A DNA stretch of 53,827 nucleotides from positions 1-53,827 of the IMG/VR virus record IMGVR_UViG_3300031694_000009, one strand, 5' to 3'. Positions within the stretch are counted from its first letter, which is position 1, and every line of letters begins with the position of its first letter. Under the pieces are notes generated by a model that was given only the letters and a program-made list of their open reading frames with translations, had not been told where the DNA came from and ran no database searches. Below, piece after piece: positions 1,696 through 53,827 of this stretch. Position numbers and translations under genes: made by a program. This DNA comes from a virus (lineage: Duplodnaviria; Caudoviricetes).

Positions 1696-1743
1696 TCGCA
1701 TACTATTCTATATTCCAAACTTAACTACGAATAAGGGTATAGA

Positions 1744-1980
1744 ATGAAAACAGTAATACACGTTAACCAACACAACATTAAAGCCAACGCCAAGGGTGCG
1801 AACCTCCCGGTGTTGACTGTCAAAGATTACAAGCAGAACCGAAAATGTAATGCGGCTTTTATTAAAGACGAAACAGGCGTCATCATTGCCAAGCTCGTCT
1901 ACCTGCCAAACAAACCACTGTCGTGTGGTGCTAAGGTTTGGATAGAAACAGAAATGGTTGTAGAAACGGTGAGGGTTTAA
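1744..1980 (+). CDS. conserved small phage protein
   Basis: IHVNQHNIKAN...KPLSCGAKVWIET pattern recalled from phage proteins; leader ACTTAACTACG. Confidence 0.75.
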   Translation: MKTVIHVNQHNIKANAKGANLPVLTVKDYKQNRKCNAAFIKDETGVIIAKLVYLPNKPLSCGAKVWIETEMVVETVRV

Positions 1981-2130: not shown

Positions 2131-2243
2131 GCACGGCAATAAGAGTAGTTAAAAAAGTAAAATATTAGCTTGCAAGATATACAATTATCTGCGATATTAT
2201 AAGAGAGGCGCAATTAAGCGTCTATCCTACGGAGTAATACCTT

Positions 2244-2396
2244 ATGAGCGAACTACAATACAACCAAGAATGGCAGACACAAGCACGGGGCACGAACGCT
2301 CAAGAGTACCAGATCTATCTAGCCACCTCAGATAGCCGTGGTAACGACATCGCAGGCAACCCTGTTAAAACCTATGATGAGTGGCTCAACTCATGA
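2244..2396 (+). CDS. 50-aa early protein (MSELQYNQEWQTQARGTNAQEYQIYL...KTYDEWLNS), below cutoff
   Basis: Hand translation; CTACGGAGTAATACCTT leader identical to that of 2599. Confidence 0.75.
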   Translation: MSELQYNQEWQTQARGTNAQEYQIYLATSDSRGNDIAGNPVKTYDEWLNS

Positions 2397-2572: not shown

Positions 2573-2598
2573 ACAACAACACTACGGAGTAATACCTT

Positions 2599-3792
2599 AT
2601 GACTACTTATAAAACAAACGCACTTGAACACGGCATTGGAAACTCGGCGGTTTCCTCAAATTGGTACAGCCGTCCAGATGACCAGAAGTTTTTAACGCTC
2701 GATGACATGCTCGCCTATAAGAAGATAGATGCGCAGCGAATGACATCACGCACTGTTGATACCCACAAGATTAAAATCATAGGGGAATTCGACGAAGCCA
2801 ACCCAAGCCGTGGCAATCTTAGTGTTCAGTATCTCGATGATAATCAACGCGAGCATAACAACATCCCAACAAACTGGTCATTCGGCCAACTATCCCAACT
2901 GGCGGGGGCGCCCTCTGGCTATATGCGAGACCTACCCGCACCTCTTGCAGCGGACTGTTTAGAGTGGGGATTGAAATATAACCGAGGTAAAGAGCTGATA
3001 AAGGTTTACGGTAACCATACCGACGGCGGCGAGTTGAGGGCCGCAACGGGTCCAGAGTATGGCCGCATTTACGACTGGGAAATATTAGAACCTGTGAAAC
3101 AATTGGTGGACGCTTCTGGCGGACGTTGGAAAGTGCCCGGCATGATGACTGGAAGTAGCGGAGGCATGGCCGTCTATGATCCTGAAGTTCCTGTTTCACT
3201 GGACACCACCACATTGTTTGCAAGTGACCGAGACGTTTTTGTATTCTTAGTGGACGACCGAAACCCTATAGAAGTGGGGAAGCTCGCCAACGGCGAGCCT
3301 GATCTAATGTTCCGAGGGTTCTATGCGTGGAACTCTGAAACGGGATCCAAGACTGCAGGCATTGCCGCGATGTATCTGCGAGGCGTATGCATGAACAGAA
3401 ACCTTTGGGGCGTCGAGAATTTCCACGAGATAAAGATAAGACACACCAAGTTTGCGCCTGATCGTTTTGCGCAGGAAGCACGGCCTGCTTTGCAGTCGTT
3501 TGCCAACGGTGCAACATCTACTTTTGTGGAAGGTGTGATGGCCGCAAAAGCAGCTAAGATTGCAAAGGATGATGATGACCGTCTGGACTTTTTAACCAAG
3601 CGAGCAGGGCTATCTGGACGCATGGCAAAAGCAGCCAACGCTAGACACCTCGTAGAAGAAGGCCGACCTGTTGAAACTGTTTGGGACGCAGCACAGGCGA
3701 TCACTGCAATTGCTCGGGACATTCCACACCAAGACGCTCGCATAGACATGGAACGAAAAGCAGGCGCGTTACTGGATAAGGTAACCGCGTGA
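2599..3792 (+). CDS. DUF932/DUF945-like protein
   Basis: VSSNWYSRPDDQKFL, WSFGQL, FASDRDVFVFLVD, RGFYAWNSETGSKT, RGVCMNR match plasmid/ICE DUF932 proteins as recalled. Confidence 0.8.
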   Translation: MTTYKTNALEHGIGNSAVSSNWYSRPDDQKFLTLDDMLAYKKIDAQRMTSRTVDTHKIKIIGEFDEANPSRGNLSVQYLDDNQREHNNIPTNWSFGQLSQLAGAPSGYMRDLPAPLAADCLEWGLKYNRGKELIKVYGNHTDGGELRAATGPEYGRIYDWEILEPVKQLVDASGGRWKVPGMMTGSSGGMAVYDPEVPVSLDTTTLFASDRDVFVFLVDDRNPIEVGKLANGEPDLMFRGFYAWNSETGSKTAGIAAMYLRGVCMNRNLWGVENFHEIKIRHTKFAPDRFAQEARPALQSFANGATSTFVEGVMAAKAAKIAKDDDDRLDFLTKRAGLSGRMAKAANARHLVEEGRPVETVWDAAQAITAIARDIPHQDARIDMERKAGALLDKVTA

Positions 3793-4010: not shown

Positions 4011-4091
4011 TTGCACTATCTTATAATATTCTATATCCTTCTATATGCGGTGGGCAAACAGCCGCTTAACTTAACTTTACGGAGTAACAAG
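4011..4091 (+). promoter_or_regulatory. early cassette leader: sigma70-type promoter, 5' hairpin and RBS
   Basis: TTGCAC-17-TATCCT; hairpin with GGGCAA in the loop; ACTTAACTTTACGGAG. Confidence 0.75.
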
Positions 4092-4289
4092 ATGACCATT
4101 GTAAAAAAGCCAGAAGACTTGAAAGAGCGGTTTGACTTAAAGATACTATCAAACTGCTGCGGTGGCCGCGTATACCTGCGGCTTTATAGCGACAATTTTG
4201 ATCGGGATCTAAACGCTTACATAGACGAGATAGACGTGCTTTGTAATAGATGCGGGTGCGAGTGTGAATACAGTGAGGAATCCCAATGA
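4092..4289 (+). CDS. small Cys-rich (Zn-ribbon-like) protein
   Basis: SNCCG...CNRC; start reassigned to ATG 4092 by GGAG RBS. Confidence 0.7.
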   Translation: MTIVKKPEDLKERFDLKILSNCCGGRVYLRLYSDNFDRDLNAYIDEIDVLCNRCGCECEYSEESQ

Positions 4290-4992: not shown

Positions 4993-5697
4993 ATGTTAAA
5001 AACAGTAGAGAATAGCGCAGCAACAAAAACCAGAGGAATCGCGGTCACATATAGAGCGGGCAATAAAGAGATGTACGGGACCTGTCCCGCATCATGTGAG
5101 CTGAACTGCAGTGGCAAAGGATCGCAGAAAATAGATCACGACTATTTTGATGCACTACTTGCTGCAGTACCTAGGGGAGGGATATCTTTTACTTACACGC
5201 ATTTTGACTGGTTCAACTGGTGTGATAAAGCCAACAAAGAAACGACGGGCCAAACCGTGGTCAATTATTCGGCCAGTACTTTATCTAGCGCCGTGGTAGC
5301 TTCTCGCGTGGTCCCCACCGTCGTAGTAGTGGGGGAAGATCTTTGGGCGAACGGCAAAGTTTTCAGCACCGACGCCGTGCCAGTGGTTCGATGCCCCGCC
5401 GAATATAGGGAGAAGTTTTCTTGTGCAGACTGCGGTAATGGTATCCCCTTATGTGCCCGGCGAAACCGTGATTACATAATTGGCTTTACAGCGCATGGGT
5501 CAGGAAAGAAAAAAGCTGCGGATCCTGAAACGGTTGGCGGCTGTTATGCAGACGGTGGTCGCGTTCGACTGCATTGGAATGCCACGGCCAACAGTGACCA
5601 GAACACAGAAACCGACGGCGAAAAACTGAAACGGTTTGCTGAGGGCCTTCGAGCGGGCTCGATTATTCGTCATCATGTTGCGGGCGATATAGGGTAA
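4993..5697 (+). CDS. Cys-rich GP88-like phage protein
   Basis: TCPASC, FTYTH, VVNYSA, VRCPAE...CADCG...LCAR...IIGFTAHG, GGCYA motifs. Confidence 0.6.
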   Translation: MLKTVENSAATKTRGIAVTYRAGNKEMYGTCPASCELNCSGKGSQKIDHDYFDALLAAVPRGGISFTYTHFDWFNWCDKANKETTGQTVVNYSASTLSSAVVASRVVPTVVVVGEDLWANGKVFSTDAVPVVRCPAEYREKFSCADCGNGIPLCARRNRDYIIGFTAHGSGKKKAADPETVGGCYADGGRVRLHWNATANSDQNTETDGEKLKRFAEGLRAGSIIRHHVAGDIG

Positions 5698-5702
5698 GCG
5701 CC

Positions 5703-5792
5703 TTGTGTTATCTAATAATGTTCTATATCCTTCTATATAGCAGCGGGCAATTGCTGCTATAACTTTTAACTTAACTACTACGGAGTAACAAC
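5703..5792 (+). promoter_or_regulatory. early cassette leader: promoter, 5' hairpin and RBS
   Basis: TTGTGT-17-TATCCT; AGCAGC-GGGCAATT-GCTGCT; ACTTAACTACTACGGAG. Confidence 0.8.
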
Positions 5793-6221
5793 ATGACAGA
5801 TTTAAATATACGTGCAGCGGATCTTATACTTGATAGAGTTTTAAACCCCACCAAGGCGGCTGAACTTGGTGCCGCAAAACCTTCGGCCCTTGTTGAAGCT
5901 TGCGGTTTGATTCCTGACTTTTTTGCAGACGCATGCATCACACTTGCGCTTGGTGTGGAAGGCTCGACACAATCGGCATTGGATGATATCGCGGACCGAA
6001 TGGATGCCGTTTATGGGTGTGGCGGTTTTGGTTCCTACCCTTTCGACGGAACCCTTTCGAGTGATGGAACGTACGTGAGTCCGCATGAAGATGACGCAGA
6101 TTTGCCACCACTTTGTCGGTTTGGTTTTAAGGGCACATTCCATTGCTTTGTTTATCAGTACGGCATCACGGCAATCAGGGACAACACCACTGGAGAATTT
6201 AAGATAGCTCGATTCGACTAA
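5793..6221 (+). CDS. hypothetical early protein
   Basis: 142 aa; own leader and terminator. Confidence 0.8.
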   Translation: MTDLNIRAADLILDRVLNPTKAAELGAAKPSALVEACGLIPDFFADACITLALGVEGSTQSALDDIADRMDAVYGCGGFGSYPFDGTLSSDGTYVSPHEDDADLPPLCRFGFKGTFHCFVYQYGITAIRDNTTGEFKIARFD

Positions 6222-6268: not shown

Positions 6269-6355
6269 GCCCTAATGCATAAACTTCTATATACTTCTAT
6301 ATAGCAGCGGGCAATTGCTGCTATAACTTTTAACTTAACTTTACGGAGTAACAAT
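6267..6355 (+). promoter_or_regulatory. early cassette leader: promoter, 5' hairpin and RBS
   Basis: TTGCCC-17-TATACT; ~56 bp near-identical to 5721-5776. Confidence 0.8.
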
Positions 6356-6943
6356 ATGAGTAACTTTATAGAACACCAAAAGCGCGAAGGAAACCAGTTT
6401 GTTGCATGGTCCTTACTAAATGAATCGGGCGAACCTGTGAAGGTCGGAACCATCTTTGTAAAAGATGGCCGCAGCTTTAAGATCACCGATGGCGCAGCAC
6501 CCAAGCACGAGGCCAGCACGGGGCGGGTTTATGGCGAATGGACCGATGGCGACAATACGCGGGAATATTTTCCCAACGTTTTCGACTGTAAATGGGTGAA
6601 GGTTGAGAAGTCTATTAAACTGGTCCAGCCCACCGTTGAGCCTGTCGACGCGTTCACCACTGCACTCACTGCGATGGTCCGCGATCTGGTAAAGGTGCAG
6701 CTTGTTGATGTAGTCCAAGCGACTATTGAACAACTGGCCACCGATGGCGAATTGAATGCGACATTCGAGGAAGTGATCAGCCAAACGCTAGACGACGGCG
6801 GCTACCTTAGCGCACATGAGTTTGATGTGTCGGATTATTTTGACGAGATCCGCGACGGTTTTAGCGAGGACATGCGCCGCGATGTTGAGAGCGTTATAAA
6901 AGAGATGATTCACGACGATAGCTTGGTGATCCGTCTAGTCTAA
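6356..6943 (+). CDS. hypothetical early protein with acidic C-terminal half
   Basis: N-terminal PKHEASTGRVY...EYFPNVF module then D/E-rich helical region. Confidence 0.8.
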   Translation: MSNFIEHQKREGNQFVAWSLLNESGEPVKVGTIFVKDGRSFKITDGAAPKHEASTGRVYGEWTDGDNTREYFPNVFDCKWVKVEKSIKLVQPTVEPVDAFTTALTAMVRDLVKVQLVDVVQATIEQLATDGELNATFEEVISQTLDDGGYLSAHEFDVSDYFDEIRDGFSEDMRRDVESVIKEMIHDDSLVIRLV

Positions 6944-6992: not shown

Positions 6993-7072
6993 GCAATATT
7001 CTATAAACTTCTATATCCTTCTATATAGCAGTAAACAATTTACTGCGACAACTTAACAACGGAGTTAACAAC
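6991..7072 (+). promoter_or_regulatory. early cassette leader: promoter, 5' hairpin and RBS
   Basis: TTGCAA-17-TATCCT; GCAGTAAA-CAA-TTTACTGC; ACTTAACAACGGAG. Confidence 0.8.
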
Positions 7073-7360
7073 ATGGGCACAATCTACAACATGAAAACCC
7101 GCTCAGGTAATGCGGCCGCTAATCAGTTTATAAACACTGATGCAACTATCAACGGCGTACATGGCGAGCTGTTCCAGTCGTACAGCTCAAACATTGCGCT
7201 AAAACCTAGCGACGGAAGCACCGCAATACTAGATGCTAATTACTGGGATTACAGCGTTACAACGGGACAATATAGAAACGAGTTCCTTGGTGAAGGCATA
7301 GCAGAAACCCGCGACAAGATCGCCCAAGGCGCCTACTTGCTGCGAGATCTGAACAGCTAA
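7073..7360 (+). CDS. conserved phage hypothetical protein
   Basis: FQSYSSNIA...YWDYSVTTGQYRNEFLGE pattern. Confidence 0.8.
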   Translation: MGTIYNMKTRSGNAAANQFINTDATINGVHGELFQSYSSNIALKPSDGSTAILDANYWDYSVTTGQYRNEFLGEGIAETRDKIAQGAYLLRDLNS

Positions 7361-7963: not shown

Positions 7964-9427
7964 ATGAGTAGAGCCACAAATCCTGCTGTTGAGGAAAAGG
8001 CATTGAAGCTTGAATTGCGATTAGCGCAGCTCGAGAAGAATGAAGAATGCCAGAATAATTTTTTAAAATTTGTGAGAGCTATGTGGCCGGAGTTCATTGC
8101 TGGTAGGCATCACAAAATAATCGCGGACAAGTTAGAGAGGGTCGCGAGCGGCGAGTTAAAGAGATTGATTATTAACATGGCACCGCGGCACACGAAGAGT
8201 GAGTTTGCGTCTTTTCTTTTTCCTGCGTGGATGATGGGAAAGAATCCGAAGATGAAGATTATTCAGGCGACGCACACGACGGAGTTGGCTGTTAACTTTG
8301 GACGTAAGACGAAGAACCTTTTGGACGTGGAAGATTACACGAATATATTTCCTGACGTAAAGTTGGCTGCGGACAGTAAGGCCTCGGGCCGTTGGGACAC
8401 GAGCGCGGGTGGTATGTATTATGCCGTGGGCGTTGGGTCGAATTTGGCGGGACGTGGTGGTGATTTAATTATTATTGATGATCCTCACTCGGAGCAGACG
8501 GCGATGTCGGCGGCTGGTTTTGATGATGCTTGGGATTGGTACACGGGCGGTCCTCGTCAGCGGTTACAGCCGGGCGGTTCGATTGTTATTGTACAGACGC
8601 GTTGGTCGGAGAAGGATTTGACGGGTCAGTTATTGCGGTCGATGGCCAAGGACCCTTTGGCAGATCAATGGGAGGTAGTTGAGCTTCCGGCCATCTTTGA
8701 GGACGGCACTCCATGTTGGCCAGAGTATTGGAGTCTTGAAGATTTAGTCGCGGTCCGCGCATCGATACCGACGAGCAAGTGGAACGCGCAGTATCAGCAG
8801 AATCCTACGGGCGAGGAGAATGCGATCATTAAGCGTGAGTGGTGGCGTGTGTGGGATAACCCAAAGGTACCCCAGTTAGAATTTGTGATTCAGAGTTACG
8901 ACACGGCTTTCTCCAAGAAGGAGACGGCAGACTTTAGTGCGATAACGACGTGGGGGGTATTTTATCCTAATGAGGGTGGGAGTGGACCCAATTTAATTTT
9001 ATTAGATAGTAAAAAGGGACGGTGGGATTTTCCTGAGTTGAAGGAAAAGGCATTGGAGTTGTATAATTTTTGGGAGCCGGATACGGTTATTATTGAGGCG
9101 AAGGCGAGCGGTACCCCCTTGACACAAGAATTACGTGCGCAGGGTATCCCGGTTGTAAATTTCACTCCGAGTCGTGGTAACGACAAGTTAACGAGGGTGC
9201 ACAGTGTGTCACCTTTGTTTGAAGCGGGTATGGTTTGGGTACCTGACGAGACTTGGGCGGACGAGTTGGTAGAAGAGGTTGCGGCCTTCCCTAATGGAGA
9301 GTTTGATGACTTGGTGGATAGTATGACTCAGGCGCTCATGCGTTATCGGCAAGGTAATTTCGTTCGGTTGCCCTCAGATGACTGTGAAGATGATGAAATT
9401 TCTGCTAAAGTACGAGTGTATTATTAA
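7964..9427 (+). CDS. terL: terminase large subunit
   Basis: INMAPRHTKS Walker A, IIIDD Walker B, QSYDTA and FDDLVDS nuclease acidic residues. Confidence 0.95.
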   Translation: MSRATNPAVEEKALKLELRLAQLEKNEECQNNFLKFVRAMWPEFIAGRHHKIIADKLERVASGELKRLIINMAPRHTKSEFASFLFPAWMMGKNPKMKIIQATHTTELAVNFGRKTKNLLDVEDYTNIFPDVKLAADSKASGRWDTSAGGMYYAVGVGSNLAGRGGDLIIIDDPHSEQTAMSAAGFDDAWDWYTGGPRQRLQPGGSIVIVQTRWSEKDLTGQLLRSMAKDPLADQWEVVELPAIFEDGTPCWPEYWSLEDLVAVRASIPTSKWNAQYQQNPTGEENAIIKREWWRVWDNPKVPQLEFVIQSYDTAFSKKETADFSAITTWGVFYPNEGGSGPNLILLDSKKGRWDFPELKEKALELYNFWEPDTVIIEAKASGTPLTQELRAQGIPVVNFTPSRGNDKLTRVHSVSPLFEAGMVWVPDETWADELVEEVAAFPNGEFDDLVDSMTQALMRYRQGNFVRLPSDDCEDDEISAKVRVYY

Positions 9428-9451: not shown

Positions 9452-10252
9452 ATGAACAACAATGCAGTGAATCTTGGAGCAGGCGGCTTTGTCTCTTATT
9501 ACGAGAACGGCGGAGCCACTGTTGTTTTAGACCCGTCCGTCGAGGAGTATCAAGAGGGCTTTGAGGAGCCTGATTATTCCGAGCAAGGTGTCGGGTCCTT
9601 TTTAGCTGATCAGTTTATGTCGATGGTGTCTGACGCAGAGGGCTTCCCTTCGGACGAGATCCGCAAGTCGGGTCGTACCAACACGCCAAACCGTGACGAA
9701 TATTACCCAGAGGGTCAGACGTTCTTTGAGTCGTTGGCCGATGACTATGGTTATCCCGTCGACCGGTTGGAGGATGGTAGCAGGGGCATTGCGCCTTTAG
9801 CGGGGAAGCACCGCATGGGCGTTCCGCGCTCTGATCTACCGAAGGCACAAGAATTAGAAGACGCACGGGGCCACATGTTGGCATCCGCGATGGCGGCCAG
9901 TGCCTATGGTCCCGAGACAGCGTCGTCGATTGGTAACCTAAACGAATATAAAGACGTGTTAACCCCGTTCGGTAATTCCCAGCATAAGGTAATGGACACG
10001 CGCAACAATGCGGTAGGGATCAGCTTGTTTAAGAAAGCGGGCATTGGTGCTTCTACGGCGCAACTAACCGAAATGGTTGATAAGCGTATTTTCGATCAGT
10101 TGAATGTAATTCTAGGCAGGACACCGGAAGAACGCGAAGCCCCGGCGGCAAACCCGAAGTGGCGTAAAAATTTCCGCAGTCCCAAGGAGGGTCCTGATGT
10201 ATACTTCCCTCGAGAAAAATCCGGTCATTTCGTAAAAGACCACAAATTTTAG
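9452..10252 (+). CDS. hypothetical virion-associated protein with DUF6973/SAA-like helical domain
   Basis: DARGHMLASA...GNLNEY...MDTRNNAVGI motif; N-terminal YENGG. Confidence 0.55.
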   Translation: MNNNAVNLGAGGFVSYYENGGATVVLDPSVEEYQEGFEEPDYSEQGVGSFLADQFMSMVSDAEGFPSDEIRKSGRTNTPNRDEYYPEGQTFFESLADDYGYPVDRLEDGSRGIAPLAGKHRMGVPRSDLPKAQELEDARGHMLASAMAASAYGPETASSIGNLNEYKDVLTPFGNSQHKVMDTRNNAVGISLFKKAGIGASTAQLTEMVDKRIFDQLNVILGRTPEEREAPAANPKWRKNFRSPKEGPDVYFPREKSGHFVKDHKF

Positions 10253-10260
10253 GAGCGTCC

Positions 10261-12711
10261 ATGGCAAACGGGAAAACAAATGCGGGGTTGATGGATAGGA
10301 ACATTCCATCTCAGATGAACATGGAAGACATGTCAGCTGAGGTCGAGCTAGAACTCCCTTCTTCACAAAACGACGTTATGGCAATGCTTGGGGCGGACGA
10401 ACCCGAAGGCATTGAGATCACCACCGAAGACGACGGTGGTGTAGTTATTGATTTTGATCCTACCGATCAACGGGGAGAGAGCCTTGAGTTTGAGGCTAAC
10501 CTTGCGGAAGAGATTCCGGATCGTGAGCTACAGAGGATATCCTCTGAGCTGTTGGGCGAGTTTGATGCTAACAAAGCCAGTCGCCAAGATTGGGAAGAAG
10601 CGTATTCCGACGGCCTCGAGCTATTGGGGTTTAGTCACGAAGAGCGCACACAGCCTTTCCGTGGAGCCTCGGGTGTTACTCATCCTCTATTGGCAGAAGC
10701 CGCAACTCAATTCCAAGCACAAGCGTTTAATGAATTACTTCCTGCGTCGGGTCCTGTTCGGACTGTCGTTATGGGAAAGAACACGTCTGCCAAGACACAG
10801 CAAGCGCACCGCGTTAAACAGTTCATGAACTACTACATTACTAACGTGATGGAAGAGTACACGCCTGACATGGATCAGATGTTGTTCTTCTTGCCGTTAG
10901 CTGGTTCTACTTTTAAAAAGACCTATTACGATGACACGCTCGACCGAGCGGTGTCTAAGTTCGTTCCTGCGGAGAACTTAGTTGTTCCGTATGAGACCGC
11001 GGACCTCGCTACATGTCCTAACATTACCCAAGTGGTTCGCATGTCGTTAAACGATTTGCGTAAACGACAGGTAGCGGGACTGTACTTAGATGTTGAAGTT
11101 ATTCCGGCACAGAAGGAATTGACTTCGCTCACGGGTGAGATGGACCGTATTGAAGGAATTGACCCCAACCAGATTGATTATGACTGCACTATATTAGAGT
11201 GTCATGTTGATTTGGACCTTGAAGGCTACGAAGATATTGACGCGGAAGACGAGTTTACGGGAATTAAAATCCCCTATATTGTCACTATTTCCGAGGACAA
11301 CGGACAGGTTTTGTCTATTCGTCGCAACTATCTCGAAGAGGACATCCTCCGTAAGAAGATCAGTTATTTCACACACTACAAGTTTTTACCGGGCTTCGGC
11401 TTCTACGGTCTAGGCTTGATCCACACTATTGGTGGTTTATCCCGAACGGCGACGTCTGCACTTCGACAGTTGATCGATGCAGGAACGCTCTCTAACCTAC
11501 CCGCTGGTTTCAAGGCCCGCGGACTACGGATCAGGGATGACGACGAGCCGCTACAACCCGGAGAGTTCCGAGATGTGGATGCGCCCGGCGGTGCAATTCG
11601 CGACAGCCTTATGCCTTTACCCTTTAAGGGTCCTGATCAAACATTGTTCCAGCTACTGGGCTTTGTGGTCGATGCCGCACAACGGTTTGCCACGATCACT
11701 GATCTTAAAGTAGGGGACGGTAATCAGCAGGGCGCCGTTGGTACGACGATGGCGATGATGGAACAAGGCGCACGAGTAATGAGCGCGGTCCATAAGCGTT
11801 TGCATTATGCTATGCGTCAAGAATTTAAAATTCTAGCACGAGTGATGTCGGAGAGTTTGCCGCAGGAGTATCCGTATTCGGTTCCCGGCGGTGATGAAAC
11901 GATCATGCGTGAGGATTTTGATGACCGCGTAGACGTTATCCCGGTTAGTAATCCTAATGTGTTTAGTCAAGCACAGCGTATTATGTTGGCTCAGACTAAA
12001 ATGCAGCTCGCGGCACAAGCGCCCGAAATACATAACATTCACGAAGTTTACCGTGATATGTATGAGGCGTTGGGTGTTGCGGACGTGGATCGTATAATGA
12101 AGTCGGTGCCGGTGGAAGACCCCGTACCTATTGATCCCGCGCAAGAGAACATAAATGCGTTAGACATGTTGCCGTTGAAAGCCTTTGAAGGTCAGGATCA
12201 CGAGGCGCATATTAAGGCGCACTTGATTTTTGGCGTCAGTCCTATTGTGGGCGGAATGCCTCCAGTGGCGATGACGGTTCAAAAACATGTTATGGAACAC
12301 GTACAAATTGGAGCACGAGAAAAAGCGGCCGTGGCATACTTGCAGCAGGTTAATCAATCGGGTGGTAAACCCGCCGACGAAGAACAGATGCTAGAAGTCG
12401 AGAGACTGACAGCACAGTTTATTGCGGAAGGCCTACAAGGTGTGAAGGACTTATCGAGTGAACTATCTGGTGCGGGTGCTCCTGATCCTTTAGTTGAATT
12501 GAAAGAGAAAGAGATTCAAGTTAAGGCAGAAGGAGACGCAGCTGACAACCAGATTGATCAAGCTAAGCTTCAGCTAGACGAACAGAACCAAGCAATGCGC
12601 TCTGAACAATTCGGTGAGCGGATCGCGGCACAAGAAAGACAAACATCAGCTCGTATCCAAGCCGCGATGGATAGAGAACTTGTTAAACAACAGGATCGAG
12701 GAGATTCATAA
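10261..12711 (+). CDS. portal protein
   Basis: 816 aa after terL; HPLLAEAATQFQA, GSTFKK, GFYGLGLIH, LIDAGTLSNLP podovirus portal motifs. Confidence 0.9.
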   Translation: MANGKTNAGLMDRNIPSQMNMEDMSAEVELELPSSQNDVMAMLGADEPEGIEITTEDDGGVVIDFDPTDQRGESLEFEANLAEEIPDRELQRISSELLGEFDANKASRQDWEEAYSDGLELLGFSHEERTQPFRGASGVTHPLLAEAATQFQAQAFNELLPASGPVRTVVMGKNTSAKTQQAHRVKQFMNYYITNVMEEYTPDMDQMLFFLPLAGSTFKKTYYDDTLDRAVSKFVPAENLVVPYETADLATCPNITQVVRMSLNDLRKRQVAGLYLDVEVIPAQKELTSLTGEMDRIEGIDPNQIDYDCTILECHVDLDLEGYEDIDAEDEFTGIKIPYIVTISEDNGQVLSIRRNYLEEDILRKKISYFTHYKFLPGFGFYGLGLIHTIGGLSRTATSALRQLIDAGTLSNLPAGFKARGLRIRDDDEPLQPGEFRDVDAPGGAIRDSLMPLPFKGPDQTLFQLLGFVVDAAQRFATITDLKVGDGNQQGAVGTTMAMMEQGARVMSAVHKRLHYAMRQEFKILARVMSESLPQEYPYSVPGGDETIMREDFDDRVDVIPVSNPNVFSQAQRIMLAQTKMQLAAQAPEIHNIHEVYRDMYEALGVADVDRIMKSVPVEDPVPIDPAQENINALDMLPLKAFEGQDHEAHIKAHLIFGVSPIVGGMPPVAMTVQKHVMEHVQIGAREKAAVAYLQQVNQSGGKPADEEQMLEVERLTAQFIAEGLQGVKDLSSELSGAGAPDPLVELKEKEIQVKAEGDAADNQIDQAKLQLDEQNQAMRSEQFGERIAAQERQTSARIQAAMDRELVKQQDRGDS

Positions 12712-41714: not shown

Positions 41715-43163
41715 TTACCGAAGCCACCCTTTAGTGTCTTCGCCCAAAACCTGCCCCGCAATATCAATCTTGTTGCGCAGAGCTTGTAGTATTTTCACGT
41801 CAATCGTCCCCGGCGACACTAAATCAATGTAAGTTACCTTATTAGTCTGACCGATCCGGTGTGCCCGGTCTTCGGACTGTAGCCTTATCTCCAAGTCATA
41901 GCTGTTACTGTAATAGATGACCGTAGTCGCTGCCGTCAAAGTGATGCCATACCCCCCTGTTCTCGGCTGACCCACGAAAAACCTTAAAGGGCTCTCAGGA
42001 TCTTGGAAATCGTTAACAATCTCTTGCCTTTCGTCTTGTGGTGTATCCCCGTAATAGGTTGCGACCGAATCTGGACCAAACCGCTCGCGCAGGGTTGCGG
42101 CTATCTGTTGTATGTCGTGTGTGTACGTCGCCCAAATAATGGCTTTTCCCTGTAACTCTTCTGCCACGTCCAAAAGCTCTTTTAAGCGGTTGTTCTTTAT
42201 TAGCTGTATTTCCCCGTCGTCAGGCATTAAGTGACCGCAGCAAATTTGTTGAAGTCGCATAATCTGAGTCAACACACTCGCCGTGGTCGCTAATTCGCCA
42301 TTCTCGAGCTGTGCCAACGCTAACTTTTGCATCTGCCCATACAGTTTTGCCTGCTCGGGCGTCAGTGCTACGTCTCGCTGGATATACACCTTCGGAGGCA
42401 GGTCTAAACAGTCTACTTTTAGTACCCGGTTACTGAACCGATCTAACTTTTCAGAAAGTTCGTCCAAACGCCGGTATCCCGTGATTTGCTGAAAACTGCG
42501 ATGACCCATGGTCCGTTGTTGGATATTCGCGTACCGTGCTTGAAAGGCATAGTAGGAATTAAAGCCAAGTGACTTCTCTGCTAGAAAACCGCATTGGCTG
42601 AACAAGTCCATAGGGCTTTTGGTGATGGGTGAACCCGTTAATATTCGGCGATACTTAGACCGCTTCTGTAAGGACATGATGTTCTTGGTTCTAGCAGCCT
42701 TACGGTTCTTTATAGTAGTAGACTCATCCACTATCACCATGTTGTCGGGGTTTTGGTAAAGGAAAGCAGTTGCTGCGTTAGAGCCCCTAGTGCTGGAAAA
42801 AGCTTCCACGTTCATGACAAATATCTTTAGGAAAGGCTCCCTGTCAACAATGAAACCCGTAAGTTCTTCCTCAAAACGCTTCGTCTTGGAAGGTATCCAC
42901 CGACATATCTTACGCGGAATGCGCTTGGGTAAATGGATAGGTATCTCACCTCGCACCCAGTTGTCGTAAACACCTTTGGGCGCTATAATCAAAGCCGCTT
43001 TTAGCTTCCCAGCTTCATACAATATGGCCATCGTATCGATAGCCACCTTGGTTTTACCTGTACCCATTTCCATGAATAGCGCGTAGTATTCCGCGGACCA
43101 TGATTCTTCTAGCGCCACTCGTTGGTGGTCATAAGGGGTGGTCTCGTATTGGTAGTTCAGCAT
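41715..43163 (-). CDS. SNF2-family (SF2) helicase
   Basis: MEMGTGKT, IVDES, LTGSP, GGYGITLT, QSEDRAHRIGQ. Confidence 0.95.
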   Translation of the reverse strand: MLNYQYETTPYDHQRVALEESWSAEYYALFMEMGTGKTKVAIDTMAILYEAGKLKAALIIAPKGVYDNWVRGEIPIHLPKRIPRKICRWIPSKTKRFEEELTGFIVDREPFLKIFVMNVEAFSSTRGSNAATAFLYQNPDNMVIVDESTTIKNRKAARTKNIMSLQKRSKYRRILTGSPITKSPMDLFSQCGFLAEKSLGFNSYYAFQARYANIQQRTMGHRSFQQITGYRRLDELSEKLDRFSNRVLKVDCLDLPPKVYIQRDVALTPEQAKLYGQMQKLALAQLENGELATTASVLTQIMRLQQICCGHLMPDDGEIQLIKNNRLKELLDVAEELQGKAIIWATYTHDIQQIAATLRERFGPDSVATYYGDTPQDERQEIVNDFQDPESPLRFFVGQPRTGGYGITLTAATTVIYYSNSYDLEIRLQSEDRAHRIGQTNKVTYIDLVSPGTIDVKILQALRNKIDIAGQVLGEDTKGWLR

Positions 43164-48937: not shown

Positions 48938-49218
48938 GCAAAAAGACTGAGTTCAAGGGTATCAAATACCCTGTTATCAAAAACGTAGTGGATCCCATGG
49001 TTGACCAGCCGAGCCACTATGCCAACAGCGACATAGAATGTATTGACGCAATGGTTGCAGCCTTCGGACAAGATAAGGTTAATACCTATGCCGCGATAGC
49101 TGCCTTTAAATACATCTGGCGTATGGACAAAAAAAGTATTGAGTCCACGCAAGATAAACAAAAAGCCGTTTGGTACTTACGGTATTCAATGGGCGACGAC
49201 CCGAGGATTAAAAAATGA
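48934..49218 (+). CDS. DUF3310 family protein (T7 gp1.7-like nucleotide kinase domain)
   Basis: VDQPSHY...IECIDAM...KYIWR...K...QD..KAVWYL. Confidence 0.85.
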   Translation: MSKKTEFKGIKYPVIKNVVDPMVDQPSHYANSDIECIDAMVAAFGQDKVNTYAAIAAFKYIWRMDKKSIESTQDKQKAVWYLRYSMGDDPRIKK

Positions 49219-51107
49219 GTTTACAAATGGCGATGTTTGCGAGAAAGAATGAGTGGGTTCCACCTTTAGAACTACCCGACATTACCGGTGCGTCTAAAAT
49301 TGCAATCGACGTGGAAACACGCGACCCGAACCTTAAGAACAGTGGCCCGGGTTGGCCAACAGGCGACGGGGAAGTGGTTGGTTACGCTGTCGCAATCGAC
49401 GGCTGGTCTTGCTATATACCTATCCGTCACTTCGGGGGCGGTAACCTTGACGAGAAAATCGTCAACCGGTGGCTTAAGAAAGTATTCGAGTGTCCTGCAG
49501 ATAAGATCATGCACAACGCACAATATGACTTGGGTTGGATTAAACAAATGGGGTTCACGGTCAACGGACGTATTATCGATACCATGATCGTCGCCTCACT
49601 GCTTGATGAAAACCGTTTTAGTTACAGTTTGAATGCGCTTTGTTACGATGTACTTAACAAAACGAAGTCGGAGAAAGCGTTAGTCGAGGCTGCCCGGGAG
49701 TTCGGAGTCGATCCCAAAGCTGAGATGTGGAAGATGCCCGCTATGTATGTCGGACCATATGCTGAAGCGGACGCAGAGCTTACCCTTGAACTCTGGAATT
49801 ACTTTTCCGTTAAGATAGGCCAAGAGGACTTGTGGAGCATCGTTAATCTCGAGCTTGACTTGCTGCCATGTCTCGTCGACATGACTATGCGAGGCGTCCG
49901 AGTCGACGTCAACCGGGTAGAGCGAACTAGGGACAGCCTCCTTAAAAGGGAGCGGGATGTCTTGAAGGAGTTGAAGCGAGTCGCGGGCCCGGGCGTTGAA
50001 ATCTGGGCGGCTCAATCGCTTGCAAAGTCCTTCGACAATCTCGGAATCCAATACCCAAAGACCGAGAAAGGCGCACCGTCCTTCACTAAACTCTTCCTGC
50101 AAGAGCATGATCACCCCGTCGCGAAGCTCATCGTCGAGGCGCGGAATCTGAACAAAACATCCGGGACCTTCATCAACTCCATCATGAAACACTGCCACGC
50201 TGATGGTCGAATACATAGTCATGTTAATCAACTCCGGTCTGATGATGGGGGAACTGTGTCGGGACGCATTTCAATGCGCAACCCTAACTTACAGCAAATT
50301 CCGGCGCGAGATCCTATTTATGGACCTATGATTCGTTCACTATTCCTGCCAGAAGAAGGAGACCAGTGGGCGGCGATTGACTTCTCGCAACAAGAACCAC
50401 GGATCTTGGTACATTATGCACATGTATACGGTAAAACGCGAGGAATACCACTAGAGGGTGCGGCGGACTTCGTTACCGCCTATAACGAGAAACCGGAAAC
50501 AGACTTCCATAGTCTAGTGGCCGAGATGGCCAAAATTCCCCGGAAACAGGCCAAGACAATTAACTTGGGTTTGATTTATGGCATGGGTGTTAATAAATTG
50601 GCGGCAGAGCTCGACACCTCCGTCGAGGAAGCCAAGGGCTTGGTCAAGCAATACCACGCCCGCGTACCTTTTGTTAAAGGACTAATGACCGGGGTGATGA
50701 ACCGCCTAAACGATAAGACTTCGGGGGGTGCGTTACGTTCCCTAGAAGGAAGGAAGTGTCGTTTTGATATGTGGGAACCCGATACGTTTGCCATGAACAA
50801 AGCTATGTCGTACAAAGAAGCGGTTGCGGCCTACGGACCAACGACCAGACTCAAACGAGCGTTTACCTATAAAGCACTCAACAGGCTCATCCAAGCATCT
50901 GCCGCGGACATGACTAAGAAAGCAATGGTCAATCTTTATAAGATGGGAAAACTCCCCATGCTGCAGATCCATGATGAACTGGCGATGTCGGTAAAGAACC
51001 TTGAGGAAGCTCAAGAGGTTGCACGGGTAATGGAAAGTGCGGTGCCTTTAGAAGTCCCCAACGTTTGCGACGTGGAAATAGGCCCTTCGTGGGGAGAAGC
51101 GAAATAA
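49215..51107 (+). CDS. polA: family A DNA polymerase with 3'-5' exonuclease
   Basis: DVET/HNAQYD/YAEAD exo motifs; DFSQQEPR motif A, RKQAKTINLGLIYG motif B, QIHDEL motif C. Confidence 0.95.
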   Translation: MSLQMAMFARKNEWVPPLELPDITGASKIAIDVETRDPNLKNSGPGWPTGDGEVVGYAVAIDGWSCYIPIRHFGGGNLDEKIVNRWLKKVFECPADKIMHNAQYDLGWIKQMGFTVNGRIIDTMIVASLLDENRFSYSLNALCYDVLNKTKSEKALVEAAREFGVDPKAEMWKMPAMYVGPYAEADAELTLELWNYFSVKIGQEDLWSIVNLELDLLPCLVDMTMRGVRVDVNRVERTRDSLLKRERDVLKELKRVAGPGVEIWAAQSLAKSFDNLGIQYPKTEKGAPSFTKLFLQEHDHPVAKLIVEARNLNKTSGTFINSIMKHCHADGRIHSHVNQLRSDDGGTVSGRISMRNPNLQQIPARDPIYGPMIRSLFLPEEGDQWAAIDFSQQEPRILVHYAHVYGKTRGIPLEGAADFVTAYNEKPETDFHSLVAEMAKIPRKQAKTINLGLIYGMGVNKLAAELDTSVEEAKGLVKQYHARVPFVKGLMTGVMNRLNDKTSGGALRSLEGRKCRFDMWEPDTFAMNKAMSYKEAVAAYGPTTRLKRAFTYKALNRLIQASAADMTKKAMVNLYKMGKLPMLQIHDELAMSVKNLEEAQEVARVMESAVPLEVPNVCDVEIGPSWGEAK

Positions 51108-51169
51108 CGCGGTTGAACCTTGCATTCTTGCATATGTTCCTATAATATCTTAGATAATTGGAGAGAAAA

Positions 51170-51385
51170 ATGGATACAACACGTTGGAAAAGCATCCTCG
51201 TACCGCGAACCGTGTACGAAGAAATTAAAGAACTGTCAAAAGCCGAAGGCCGTACAATCGGTGGGCAATTACGCCTTGTTTTTGACTGGTATAAAGAAGA
51301 GCAAGGGGGAAGTAATGCCGCTAGAAAGCAAAGAGCCGGGGGAAATACACAAAAGACTGGTAATAAACCAGTGTCCAAAGTGTAA
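51170..51385 (+). CDS. ribbon-helix-helix-like regulator
   Basis: WKSILVP..VYEEIKELSKAEGRTIGGQL; GGAGAG RBS before ATG 51170. Confidence 0.65.
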   Translation: MDTTRWKSILVPRTVYEEIKELSKAEGRTIGGQLRLVFDWYKEEQGGSNAARKQRAGGNTQKTGNKPVSKV

Positions 51386-51506
51386 ATGCACCCTCGATAT
51401 AATTGAAAAAACGGTAGAGACGTTAGTCCGGCGGTGTGGCGCCTGCCGACTCACGATCTCCGACCAGATTGCGGGAGCCGAGTTCCCAATAAGTGTATGC
51501 GATTAA
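51315..51506 (+). CDS. small Zn-ribbon protein
   Basis: CPKC...CGAC; GGGGGA RBS before ATG 51315. Confidence 0.6.
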   Translation: MPLESKEPGEIHKRLVINQCPKCKCTLDIIEKTVETLVRRCGACRLTISDQIAGAEFPISVCD

Positions 51507-51509
51507 GTG

Positions 51510-51537
51510 TTGCTTATCCCATATCACTGTGTATAAT
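51510..51537 (+). promoter_or_regulatory. sigma70-type promoter of the putative sRNA
   Basis: TTGCTT-16-TATAAT; flanked by TATGCGAT/ATCCCATA boxes. Confidence 0.7.
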
Positions 51538-51543
51538 GATACC

Positions 51544-51616
51544 GAGCATGGCAACATGTTCTCCGTAGTTAAGTACCGCCCCGAACTCGGTTGCCCCCGA
51601 GCCGGGGCATTTTTTT
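51544..51616 (+). ncRNA. putative trans-acting antisense sRNA against early-gene leaders
   Basis: promoter, GNRA-capped 5' hairpin, CTCCGTAGTTAAGT linker, terminator with TTGCCC loop and T7 tail; no ORF inside. Confidence 0.7.
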
Positions 51617-51628
51617 ATAAGGAGAGTA

Positions 51629-51841
51629 ATGATGGATAAGATTTTTATAAATGGTCTGATGGCCAAGAAGCCAAACGACAATTCCCCTGAATGGGTTAAG
51701 TGCAATATTAGTATAAAGCGCGAAGAACTTATTGGGTGGCTAACCGAACAAACAGATGAGTGGATCAACGCCCAAGTTTGTGAAAGCAAAGGCGGAAAAT
51801 GGTATGCGGAGGTCGACACGTGGAAGCCGACAAACGGGTAG
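51629..51841 (+). CDS. conserved small phage protein
   Basis: KIFINGL..K.P....PEWVK...ESKGGKWYAEVDTWKP; AAGGAG RBS. Confidence 0.8.
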   Translation: MMDKIFINGLMAKKPNDNSPEWVKCNISIKREELIGWLTEQTDEWINAQVCESKGGKWYAEVDTWKPTNG

Positions 51842-53695: not shown

Positions 53696-53827
53696 ATAAT
53701 GAACCACCCCACCTCAGCGTAGGGTACAAGCCTTTTAACGCCGCAGCGGGCAAACGCGGCACGAGACAAAGAGATTAGCGTGGGAGCCACGGTTGTCCAC
53801 AAAGGCATTTTGCTATAAACTGGCTTT
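53693..53827. repeat. Terminal direct repeat (right copy)
   Basis: matches 1-135 with one mismatch. Confidence 0.95.

Follow-up and report, generated by a model that had tools for sequence, protein, structure and literature searches.

We describe here a small RNA gene of a phage, located at positions 51510-51616 of the IMG/VR virus record IMGVR_UViG_3300031694_000009 (Duplodnaviria; Caudoviricetes). The DNA analysed, called the window throughout, is the whole record, 53,827 nt given as one strand, with an estimated completeness of 94%. Its ends (1-131 and 53697-53827) are direct repeats of ~130 nt with one or two differences, and the genome is probably complete and circularly permuted or terminally redundant, despite its label as linear. 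As the last ~130 nt repeat the first ~130 nt, the map is effectively circular, and on this circular map the RNA locus is found 4-9 kb upstream of its predicted targets. The locus lies between the polA gene (49215-51107), whose product shows only 57-50% identity to Phage DSL-LC04 and Pelagibacter phages HTVC023P/027P, too remote for a useful comparison, and a small gene of about 70 codons. It comprises a promoter, a 5' hairpin, an unpaired seed and an intrinsic terminator, all on the + strand, which also carries nearly all the long open reading frames (ORFs) of the window (Table 1).

No nucleotide match to the RNA locus was found among deposited phages with megablast and blastn. Relatives were taken from IMG/VR as PolA-related stretches, at least 600 of which were found, and the best 80 loci were kept; individual loci and genomes are designated below by L and G numbers. 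They represent an uncultured phage family that is abundant in marine viromes. Many of their contigs are fragments, and the lineages are related, so that the counts reported here overstate independence. Gene calls are crude, being made with ORF and ribosome-site heuristics.

A conserved, structured RNA unit

The original prediction, made from the letters of the window alone, described a promoter, a start near 51544, a hairpin, a linker and a terminator with a tail of seven T, and each of these elements is present where it had been placed. The start is deduced from the position of the promoter, which was read from the sequence: a promoter scan that listed the terminator did not list it, its -35 matching at only 3/6 positions, below the threshold of the scan. 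The 73-nt RNA folds as two hairpins with an energy of -29.9 kcal/mol and a z-score of -4.19, and none of 200 shuffled sequences was as stable. In this fold the minimum free energy and centroid structures coincide and account for 0.53 of the ensemble, and no competing fold was seen. As had also been predicted, the unit contains no conserved ORF: its sole internal ATG opens a frame of 6 codons, situated in a hairpin that co-varies among relatives.

Table 1. Features of the RNA locus, neighbouring genes and predicted target leaders in the window. ddG, free-energy difference (kcal/mol) in the cofold screen; ranks are among 66 gene starts.
Feature	Position	Strand	Details
Promoter, sigma-70-type, TTGCTT-16-TATAAT	51510-51537	+	-35 at 51510-51515, -10 at 51532-51537; read from sequence
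5' hairpin GAGCATG-GCAA-CATGTTC	51544-51561	+	7 bp, loop GCAA; from fold and homologs
Unpaired seed CTCCGTAGTTAAGT	51561-51574	+	Core CTCCGTAGT at 51561-51569, complementary to the leader/Shine-Dalgarno motif ACTACGGAG
Intrinsic terminator	51578-51616	+	GC-rich hairpin 51578-51608, apical loop TTGCCC 51591-51596, then A and seven T at 51610-51616
Operator-like half-sites	51496-51523	+	TATGCGAT at 51496-51503 and ATCCCATA at 51516-51523, imperfect inverted repeat either side of the -35
Predicted target leader	2574-2601	+	ACTACGGAG 2581-2589; ATG 2599, 397 aa, DUF932/phrog_1362; ddG -11.2, rank 5/66
Predicted target leader	4047-4094	+	GGGCAA-loop hairpin 4047-4065; ACTTAACTTTACGGAG 4069-4084; ATG 4092, 65 aa, then 204-aa ORF at 4286; ddG -16.3, rank 1/66
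Predicted target leader	5736-5795	+	GGGCAA-loop hairpin 5736-5761; ACTTAACTACTACGGAG 5769-5785; ATG 5793, 142 aa; ddG -13.8, rank 3
Predicted target leader	6300-6358	+	GGGCAA-loop hairpin 6300-6325; ACTTAACTTTACGGAG 6333-6348; ATG 6356, 195 aa; ddG -12.3, rank 4
Predicted target leader	7027-7075	+	Hairpin without GGGCAA; ACTTAACAACGGAG 7051-7064; ATG 7073, 95 aa; ddG -15.0, rank 2
Weak candidate leader	2220-2246	+	CTACGGAG 2227-2234; ATG 2244, 50-aa ORF; ddG -7.3, rank 12/66
Possible weak site	1719-1746	+	ACTTAACTACG 1719-1729, upstream of a different ribosome site; ATG 1744, 78 aa; ddG -6.7, rank 17/66
Conserved gene, ~70 aa	51629-51841	+	No known family; ribosome site 51620-51626 directly after the T-run; no promoter of its own
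Upstream small gene, 71 aa	51170-51385	+	Weak ribbon-helix-helix match; own promoter at ~51120-51147

A blastn search with positions 51400-51700 matched 48 of the 81 loci, the similarity beginning abruptly at about 51494. When 36 distinct homologs are aligned, a near-invariant pair of motifs, TATGCGAT...ATC(C/G)CATA, is found around a TTGNNT -35 and is followed by a spacer of variable sequence and a -10 (TATAAT, TATACT or TATAGT) of fixed position. Then come a 5' hairpin whose sequence changes freely with its pairing kept, an almost invariant block C-TCCGTAGT, and finally a terminator in which the outer stem co-varies, the loop region GGTTGCCCCCG is conserved and the tail is rich in T. This tail is present in 50/50 aligned homologs, its T-runs often being interrupted. 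A 5' hairpin of at least 5 bp, ending no more than 2 nt before the core, is formed in 48/50 distinct homologs versus 20.5% of shuffles, and 41 distinct sequences are used for it. The unpaired core CUCCGUAG is almost invariant; every column of CTCCGTAGT is invariant or reaches at least 90% conservation, the consensus leaves this stretch unpaired, and the most conserved columns of the whole alignment are those of the unpaired core and the terminator loop.

RNAalifold recovers the terminator, with compensatory changes at 7/10 pairs, and the count is also 7/10 in an alignment guided by a covariance model. In this model-guided alignment the 5' hairpin has compensatory changes at 7/7 pairs, giving 14/17 base pairs for the RNA, and 91.9% of the cells are paired versus 71.7% in shuffles (0/500 reach this value) and 33-47% with the partners slid, values that lean towards structure since the alignment was fitted to it. 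The covariance model, R1, was built from 50 sequences and its E-values are rough. It has a single match in the window (51540-51616, + strand, 73.3 bits) and matches 50 of the 80 PolA loci at E <= 3.3e-8, one per locus and always on the polA strand, including homologs of the L002, L056 and L057 types that pattern searches had missed. A pattern scan of the collection for core, gap and loop yielded 114 new loci, with 41 further RNA loci among them; the 73 that lack the full architecture are mostly chance matches in coding DNA, together with a few operator variants and 8 leaders in reverse.

G.U pairs outnumber A.C juxtapositions in the stems (45 vs 22), and this excess, together with the promoter and T-run conserved on the + strand, indicates that the + strand is the one transcribed. 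The unit is thus a genuine RNA gene, conserved in relatives, whose product is structured and non-coding, in agreement with the plus-strand promoter-to-terminator unit originally proposed.

Two deviating matches are recorded here for completeness. In L010 (8210-8287) R1 has a match with E ~2e-8, where the promoter differs and the core, CCTCGTTGTG, is divergent, and in L078 (3866-3941) there is a weak match (E ~0.08) that has CTCCCGTTGATGA; the short flanks available for both showed no recognisable matching leaders.

A different architecture, type-2, occupies the same place in distant relatives (L065, L069-L073 and L075), behind the ribbon-helix-helix-like gene and ahead of the 70-aa gene. Its elements are a promoter of its own, a hairpin GTGC-TCCGTAG-GCAC with the core at its tip, and an unrelated terminator without the TTGCCC loop; R1 matches L069-L073 weakly (E 0.04). 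In L065, L069 and L075 a second promoter, serving the 70-aa gene, comes after the type-2 unit, and the leader of this gene contains TTACGGAG. Since the core alone is retained in type-2 units, selection holds the core itself, and the RNA can stand alone.

Complementarity between the RNA and phage leaders

Read as its reverse complement, the core gives CUACGGAG, which forms the Shine-Dalgarno region of several genes transcribed as separate units at 2.2-7.1 kb of the window. The stretch from 2.2 to 7.4 kb is a run of small genes whose function is mostly unrecognised, only DUF932/phrog_1362 and DUF7227 being identified. A promoter-like region and a terminator accompany most of these genes individually, and in several a 5' hairpin is present too; their leaders end in (ACTTAACT..)ACGGAG, 5-9 nt before the ATG. 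All the matches on which the original prediction relied are present, namely 1719 (11/11, then diverging), CTACGGAG at 2227, ACTACGGAG at 2581 and also at 5777, ACTTAACT-tt-ACGGAG at 4069 and 6333, ACTTAACT-act-ACGGAG at 5769, 13/14 at 7051, and AACATG at 5790 and 7070. With up to 3 mismatches allowed, the 14-mer of the seed has 10 matches in the window versus 4.27 expected, a number reached by 0/100 shuffles and modest if taken alone. TACGGAG occurs 7 times on the + strand, 6 of these no more than 12 nt upstream of a start codon (2.2-6.4 kb), and its reverse complement occurs 3 times in the window, one of them being the RNA locus.

The RNA was cofolded with the -60 to +15 regions of 66 gene starts, which had been called crudely. 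Highest in the ranking are the starts at 4092, 7073, 5793, 6356 and 2599, with energies from -16.3 to -11.2 kcal/mol, the next one reaching -9.6 and the median being -4.75; these five leaders are paralogous and amount to few independent observations. Leaders of the putative early-gene array, which had been expected to come out on top of such a screen, thus take ranks 1-5 of 66. Of the approximately seven target messages proposed at that time, two fare less well: the start at 2244 is weak (rank 12), and the 1719 leader, at rank 17/66, is not supported and was not retained as a target. Pairing of the CATGTT arm of the 5' hairpin with AACATG start codons had been suggested as well; it is lineage-specific at best, since this arm co-varies freely, and it was rejected, being absent as a conserved feature in relatives.

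The decisive support for the complementarity lies in its conservation among relatives rather than in the window alone. G002 contains five forward copies of CTACGGAG, all located downstream of the RNA at a distance of no more than 5 kb, and a single reverse copy, which is the RNA itself; in G008 there are likewise five forward copies, one of which is upstream of the RNA, and one reverse copy. Controls read backwards gave 0-1 occurrences. In relatives the leader motif keeps a fixed distance of 5-12 nt to the start codon and a variable distance to the promoter, which argues for a role in translation rather than in DNA binding.

The co-occurrence of the RNA with this leader class, defined as CTA(C/T)GGAG or TTACGGAG, was examined in loci with at least 3 kb after polA, L002 being counted as RNA-positive. 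Such a leader is present at least once in 22/26 RNA-positive loci (51/218 GGAG leaders) and in 0/5 RNA-less loci (0/35 GGAG leaders), the latter also being the more distant ones, so that this comparison is not phylogenetically independent. Besides the class UCCGUAGU and a divergent form in L010, the seed has the variants UCUGUAGU, UCUAUAGU (12 loci), UUCGUAGU, UCCGUUGU and UCCGUAGA, and its C-to-U changes keep the pairing as G.U. By seed class, the leaders of UCUAUAGU are 0 C-type and 4 T-type, and those of UCCGUAGU 107 C-type and 62 T-type; the UCUAUAGU class is a single clade.

The same pair of motifs is also used in cis. In L042 (3141-3165) and L056 (8936-8965), a seed copy, CTCCGTA(A/G), precedes CTATGGAG or CTATGAAG in the leader of a helix-turn-helix gene. 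The L042 copy can fold back onto the ribosome site of that gene as a cis anti-Shine-Dalgarno hairpin (-12.4 kcal/mol, z -2.17). We count the cis use in this lineage as supportive of the pairing.

A second match, not noticed originally, involves the apical loop of the terminator, TTGCCC (UUGCCC in the RNA), which is complementary to the GGGCAA found in the loops of the leader 5' hairpins at 4047-4065, 5736-5761 and 6300-6325. Read on the opposite strand, the core, gap and loop pattern picks out true leaders of the 5793 homolog in 8 loci. Among 18 distinct orthologous leaders of the 5793 type, a GGGCAA-type loop is present in 16/18 and the core in 17/18, and the stems co-vary. The loop match and the seed match are colinear, as would be expected had the RNA arisen from an inverted leader.

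Several other leader elements were noted in passing. At 4071-4079 and 6335-6343 of the window, TTAACTTTA stands immediately before the Shine-Dalgarno sequence; we take this nonamer to be the translational enhancer of the T7 gene 10 leader. A further GGGCAA-loop hairpin, GCCGC-AGCGGGCAAAC-GCGGC, lies inside the terminal repeat (48-68 / 53740-53760), upstream of the ORF at 151-447, and no CUACGGAG motif follows it. In L044 (~10225-10266), L018 (~5320-5363), L045 (~5895-5938) and L065 (~9310-9356), a leader hairpin with a GGGCAA loop is followed by CGCTCTTT(A/G)ACAA, or by TGTTCTTTAACAA and a hairpin. These elements resemble boxA/boxB (nut or rrn) antitermination signals; boxA-like sites in the window are not above chance (9 matches vs 8.2 expected).

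Neighbouring genes and operator-like units

The conserved gene of ~70 aa that follows the RNA was found in 50/80 loci by tblastn. In the window it lacks a separate promoter, and its transcription would depend on polymerase passing the terminator. Relatives with the type-1 arrangement are like the window in this respect, the ribosome site of the gene lying directly 3' of the T-run with no separate promoter.

Upstream of the RNA, the product of the 71-aa gene matches Pfam RHH_5 with E 0.0055 and 16.9 bits, below the 26-bit cut-off. This ribbon-helix-helix-like protein is a candidate binder of the operator-like units described below. A 63-aa ORF (51315-51506) lies upstream of the RNA promoter, and half-site TATGCGAT overlaps its final codons and stop; it has two CxxC pairs, appears zinc-ribbon-like by eye and matches no family. 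It is missing in type-2 relatives, where the RNA comes directly after the ribbon-helix-helix-like gene.

The two half-sites flanking the -35, near-invariant across the 36 homologous regions, belong to a wider set of 8-nt units, ATCGCATA and ATCCCATA (inverse TATGCGAT), that occur in the spacer or -10 of many sigma-70-type promoters of the family. Examples are found at 51496-51523 and 51120-51150 of the window, at about 9905-9950 of L026 and in L095-type leaders. Target promoters in relatives are clear TTGACA-17-TATAGT/TATAAT promoters with ATCGCATA/ATCCCATA units in the spacer. As the same units recur at both kinds of promoter, the sequences suggest a common DNA-binding regulator for the RNA and its targets.

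Elsewhere in the genome, the sole long minus-strand gene of the window, 41715-43163 (-), encodes a SNF2-family helicase (SNF2-rel_dom, E 9.5e-24; Helicase_C, E 7.5e-15).

Proposed role and comparison with known systems

We consider it fairly probable that the RNA is a trans-acting antisense RNA, which, by pairing with a class of phage leaders over their extended Shine-Dalgarno region, would block ribosome binding and translation. The host RNA polymerase would start near 51544 and stop at the T-run (51610-51616), giving an RNA of ~73 nt that presents its single-stranded core CUCCGUAGU(UAAGU) between the 5' hairpin and the UUGCCC-loop terminator hairpin. The core would pair with (A)CUACGGAG, that is, with the Shine-Dalgarno sequence and the four to five bases preceding it, a motif that in this phage family marks a class of individually promoted and terminated genes, those of the window starting at 2599, 4092, 5793, 6356, 7073 and perhaps 2244. 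By covering the ribosome binding site, the duplex would prevent 30S binding and translation of the target messages together, and it may also invite cleavage. The extra CUAC beyond GGAG would give selectivity over ordinary GGAG sites. Repression may be timed and assisted by a protein cofactor, and in the window the terminator may also gate the downstream 70-aa gene. The RNA might serve as the early-to-late switch, superinfection-exclusion factor or carrier-state repressor suggested originally.

On leaders that begin with a GGGCAA hairpin, pairing could start between the two loops, that of the terminator and that of the leader, and would be colinear with the seed match; pairing through terminator loops is reported for other small RNAs (PMC11979758). 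Such a contact is a hypothesis for a subset of targets and optional at best, because few type-1 leaders have a GGGCAA hairpin and the type-2 RNAs lack the loop, none of the type-2 leaders (0/11) having the hairpin. An extended form of the proposal is rather unlikely in our estimation. In it, the kissing of UUGCCC with GGGCAA at the 5' end of the message and the seed on CUACGGAG would shut off the whole leader class, either at a defined moment of infection or when the genome is a superinfecting one. Regulator and cassette would have evolved together in hundreds of marine phages, the variant whose seed lies in a hairpin loop among them.

A number of results weigh against the antisense reading. 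The description of the RNA as stand-alone fits L065, L069 and L075; it does not fit the window, where the unit cannot be separated from the 5' leader of the next gene and is a leader or attenuator as well. In most relatives the core match spans only 8-10 nt, a 14-nt match being peculiar to the lineage of the window, a GGGCAA-loop hairpin is found in only 14/52 distinct type-1 leaders, and the complementarity could partly derive from inverted duplication of a leader. A genome-wide duplexfold scan was too noisy, the leaders scoring -20.8 kcal/mol and unrelated sites -21 to -25.6. Cofolding in 18 relatives gave mixed results: leaders came out on top in L024, L037, L049 and L044, and starts of long ORFs in L056, L012 and L043, and in L026 the top partner was an unclassified 184-aa start and the second a 512-aa ORF. 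Co-variation of seed and leaders, which the original prediction had named as a check, is marginal. In one orthologous leader (...CTACATACTA[C/T]GGAG) the pair changes from C-G to U.G to U-A across three seed classes, a series that comes from one clade. When the seed region of each lineage was paired with the intergenic leaders of each lineage, the own seed had a mean rank of 5.2/13 (range 1-12; naive p 0.047, the lineages not being independent). We do not claim this last result as co-variation.

The arrangement in the window invites a reading in cis only, where the promoter and its proximal terminator form an attenuator of the 70-aa-gene operon in the manner of lambda PR'-tR', the short transcript is a by-product, and the core serves an antitermination factor or cis pairing. 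The gene indeed lacks a promoter of its own after the T-run in the window and in all type-1 relatives, the interrupted T-runs of relatives suggest leaky termination, and the boxA-like leader elements found in some of them indicate that processive antitermination may exist in the family. Yet L065, L069 and L075 provide the same gene with a separate promoter and still conserve the core, which weighs against a pure attenuator. Moreover, the predominant two-hairpin fold shows no alternative antiterminator pairing, boxA-like sites of the window do not exceed chance, and no Q-type protein was found in the genome with PF06530 and PF03589. An unrelated antiterminator or another protein-dependent mechanism may nonetheless exist. 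A device of this kind would leave unexplained why the core mirrors the Shine-Dalgarno region of the leaders, and we regard it as improbable. The possibility that the locus acts at the DNA level, or is a relic, was also considered: it could be an inverted, degenerate leader cassette, or ACTACGGAG could be a double-stranded protein site read either way, with no antisense pairing. The reverse complement of the RNA body does read as a leader, with a hairpin with a GGGGGCAA loop, ACTTAACTACGGAG and then AACATG, where a 44-aa minus-strand ORF starts (51557 to 51423), and the type-2 core lies inside an inverted repeat GTGC...GCAC that could be a dimer site. However, the minus-strand start codon is not conserved, since the arm that holds it co-varies in a hairpin; conservation of promoter and T-run is confined to the + strand, with 50/50 model matches on that strand, and the leader motif is fixed relative to the start codon and not to the promoter. 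A minus-strand leader or ORF was therefore rejected, and the DNA-level and historical readings are very improbable.

That a real small RNA has host messages as its main or additional targets, the match to phage leaders being secondary since any CUCC seed pairs with GGAG, appears quite improbable. According to PMC12197685, the small RNAs described from phages and prophages have mostly host messages as their targets. About three quarters of the leaders offer no partner for the conserved UUGCCC loop. A seed, an A/U-rich stretch, a terminator and a U-tail are the common architecture of chaperone-dependent trans-acting RNAs, which the layout of this RNA resembles. Against host targets, the conserved complement runs past GGAG into CUAC, common to phage leaders, relatives without the RNA also lack these leaders, and nothing positive supports a host target.

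At the level of sequence, the RNA represents a new and widespread family with a plausible but putative multi-target, self-directed role. Scanning the whole window against Rfam gave no family at gathering score and no riboswitch match at the locus; a permissive scan of 51450-51680 returned only four matches with E 1.7-7.7, all well under the gathering score and taken as noise. No description of such an RNA was found in the published literature searched, supplements excepted. The phage small RNAs known from earlier studies are for the most part directed at host genes or at a single phage operon nearby. Here one RNA, apparently matched to a repeated leader cassette, could control a phage regulon at the ribosome binding site. 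If this were true, it would explain the conservation of the bases before GGAG in the leaders. With its sigma-70 promoters, 73-nt RNA and 40-nt leaders, the system would be compact and portable, and the RNA family model could annotate many genomes, given at least 600 polA relatives and the RNA in 50 of the 80 examined.

The closest known cases are c4 of phages P1 and P7 and CI of P4. In the part of PMC12197685 devoted to c4, short exposed segments of a phage antisense RNA mask a ribosome binding site. The RNA described here is like c4 and CI in being small, structured and phage-encoded, with exposed segments complementary to ribosome-site regions and repeated target sites. Unlike them, it has its own promoter and terminator instead of being cut from the transcript of the target operon, and the targets predicted for it belong to no fewer than five separate transcription units, 4 kb or more from the RNA, rather than to one operon. 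The absence of resemblance to c4 and CI noted originally is upheld: RF01695 (C4) has no match at E <= 1 in the whole genome. In lambda, PR'-tR' yields a short transcript, 6S RNA, and the StxS RNA of Shiga-toxin phages acts in trans as a regulator. In the window and in type-1 relatives the locus has, by its anatomy, a comparable promoter-proximal terminator that would yield a short RNA ahead of promoterless genes, and it differs in that no Q family was found, distant relatives uncouple the RNA from the downstream gene, and the predicted targets are leaders of the phage itself.

Bacterial RNAs of the RsaE/RoxS type use C-rich seeds to mask the Shine-Dalgarno sites of several messages, and here too one exposed C-rich motif faces several GGAG-type ribosome sites, with the terminator loop as a possible second site. 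Those RNAs are chromosomal and serve host metabolism, whereas here both regulator and regulon are phage-borne, the regulon being a repeated leader cassette. Lambda OOP and P22 sar are small phage cis-antisense RNAs with intrinsic terminators, encoded opposite, and fully complementary to, a single target. The present RNA is likewise a small phage RNA with an intrinsic terminator and a proposed action by pairing with phage messages; in contrast to OOP and sar, it lies on the same strand as its distant targets, with 8-14 nt of complementarity, and the strand opposite it holds only the non-conserved 44-aa ORF, hence no overlapping cis-antisense target. Finally, the T4 endoribonuclease RegB inactivates a class of phage messages by acting on the GGAG within their Shine-Dalgarno sequences. 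There recognition is the work of a protein nuclease, and here it is proposed to be that of an RNA; if this holds, the locus would provide an RNA counterpart of the protein systems that silence early phage messages.

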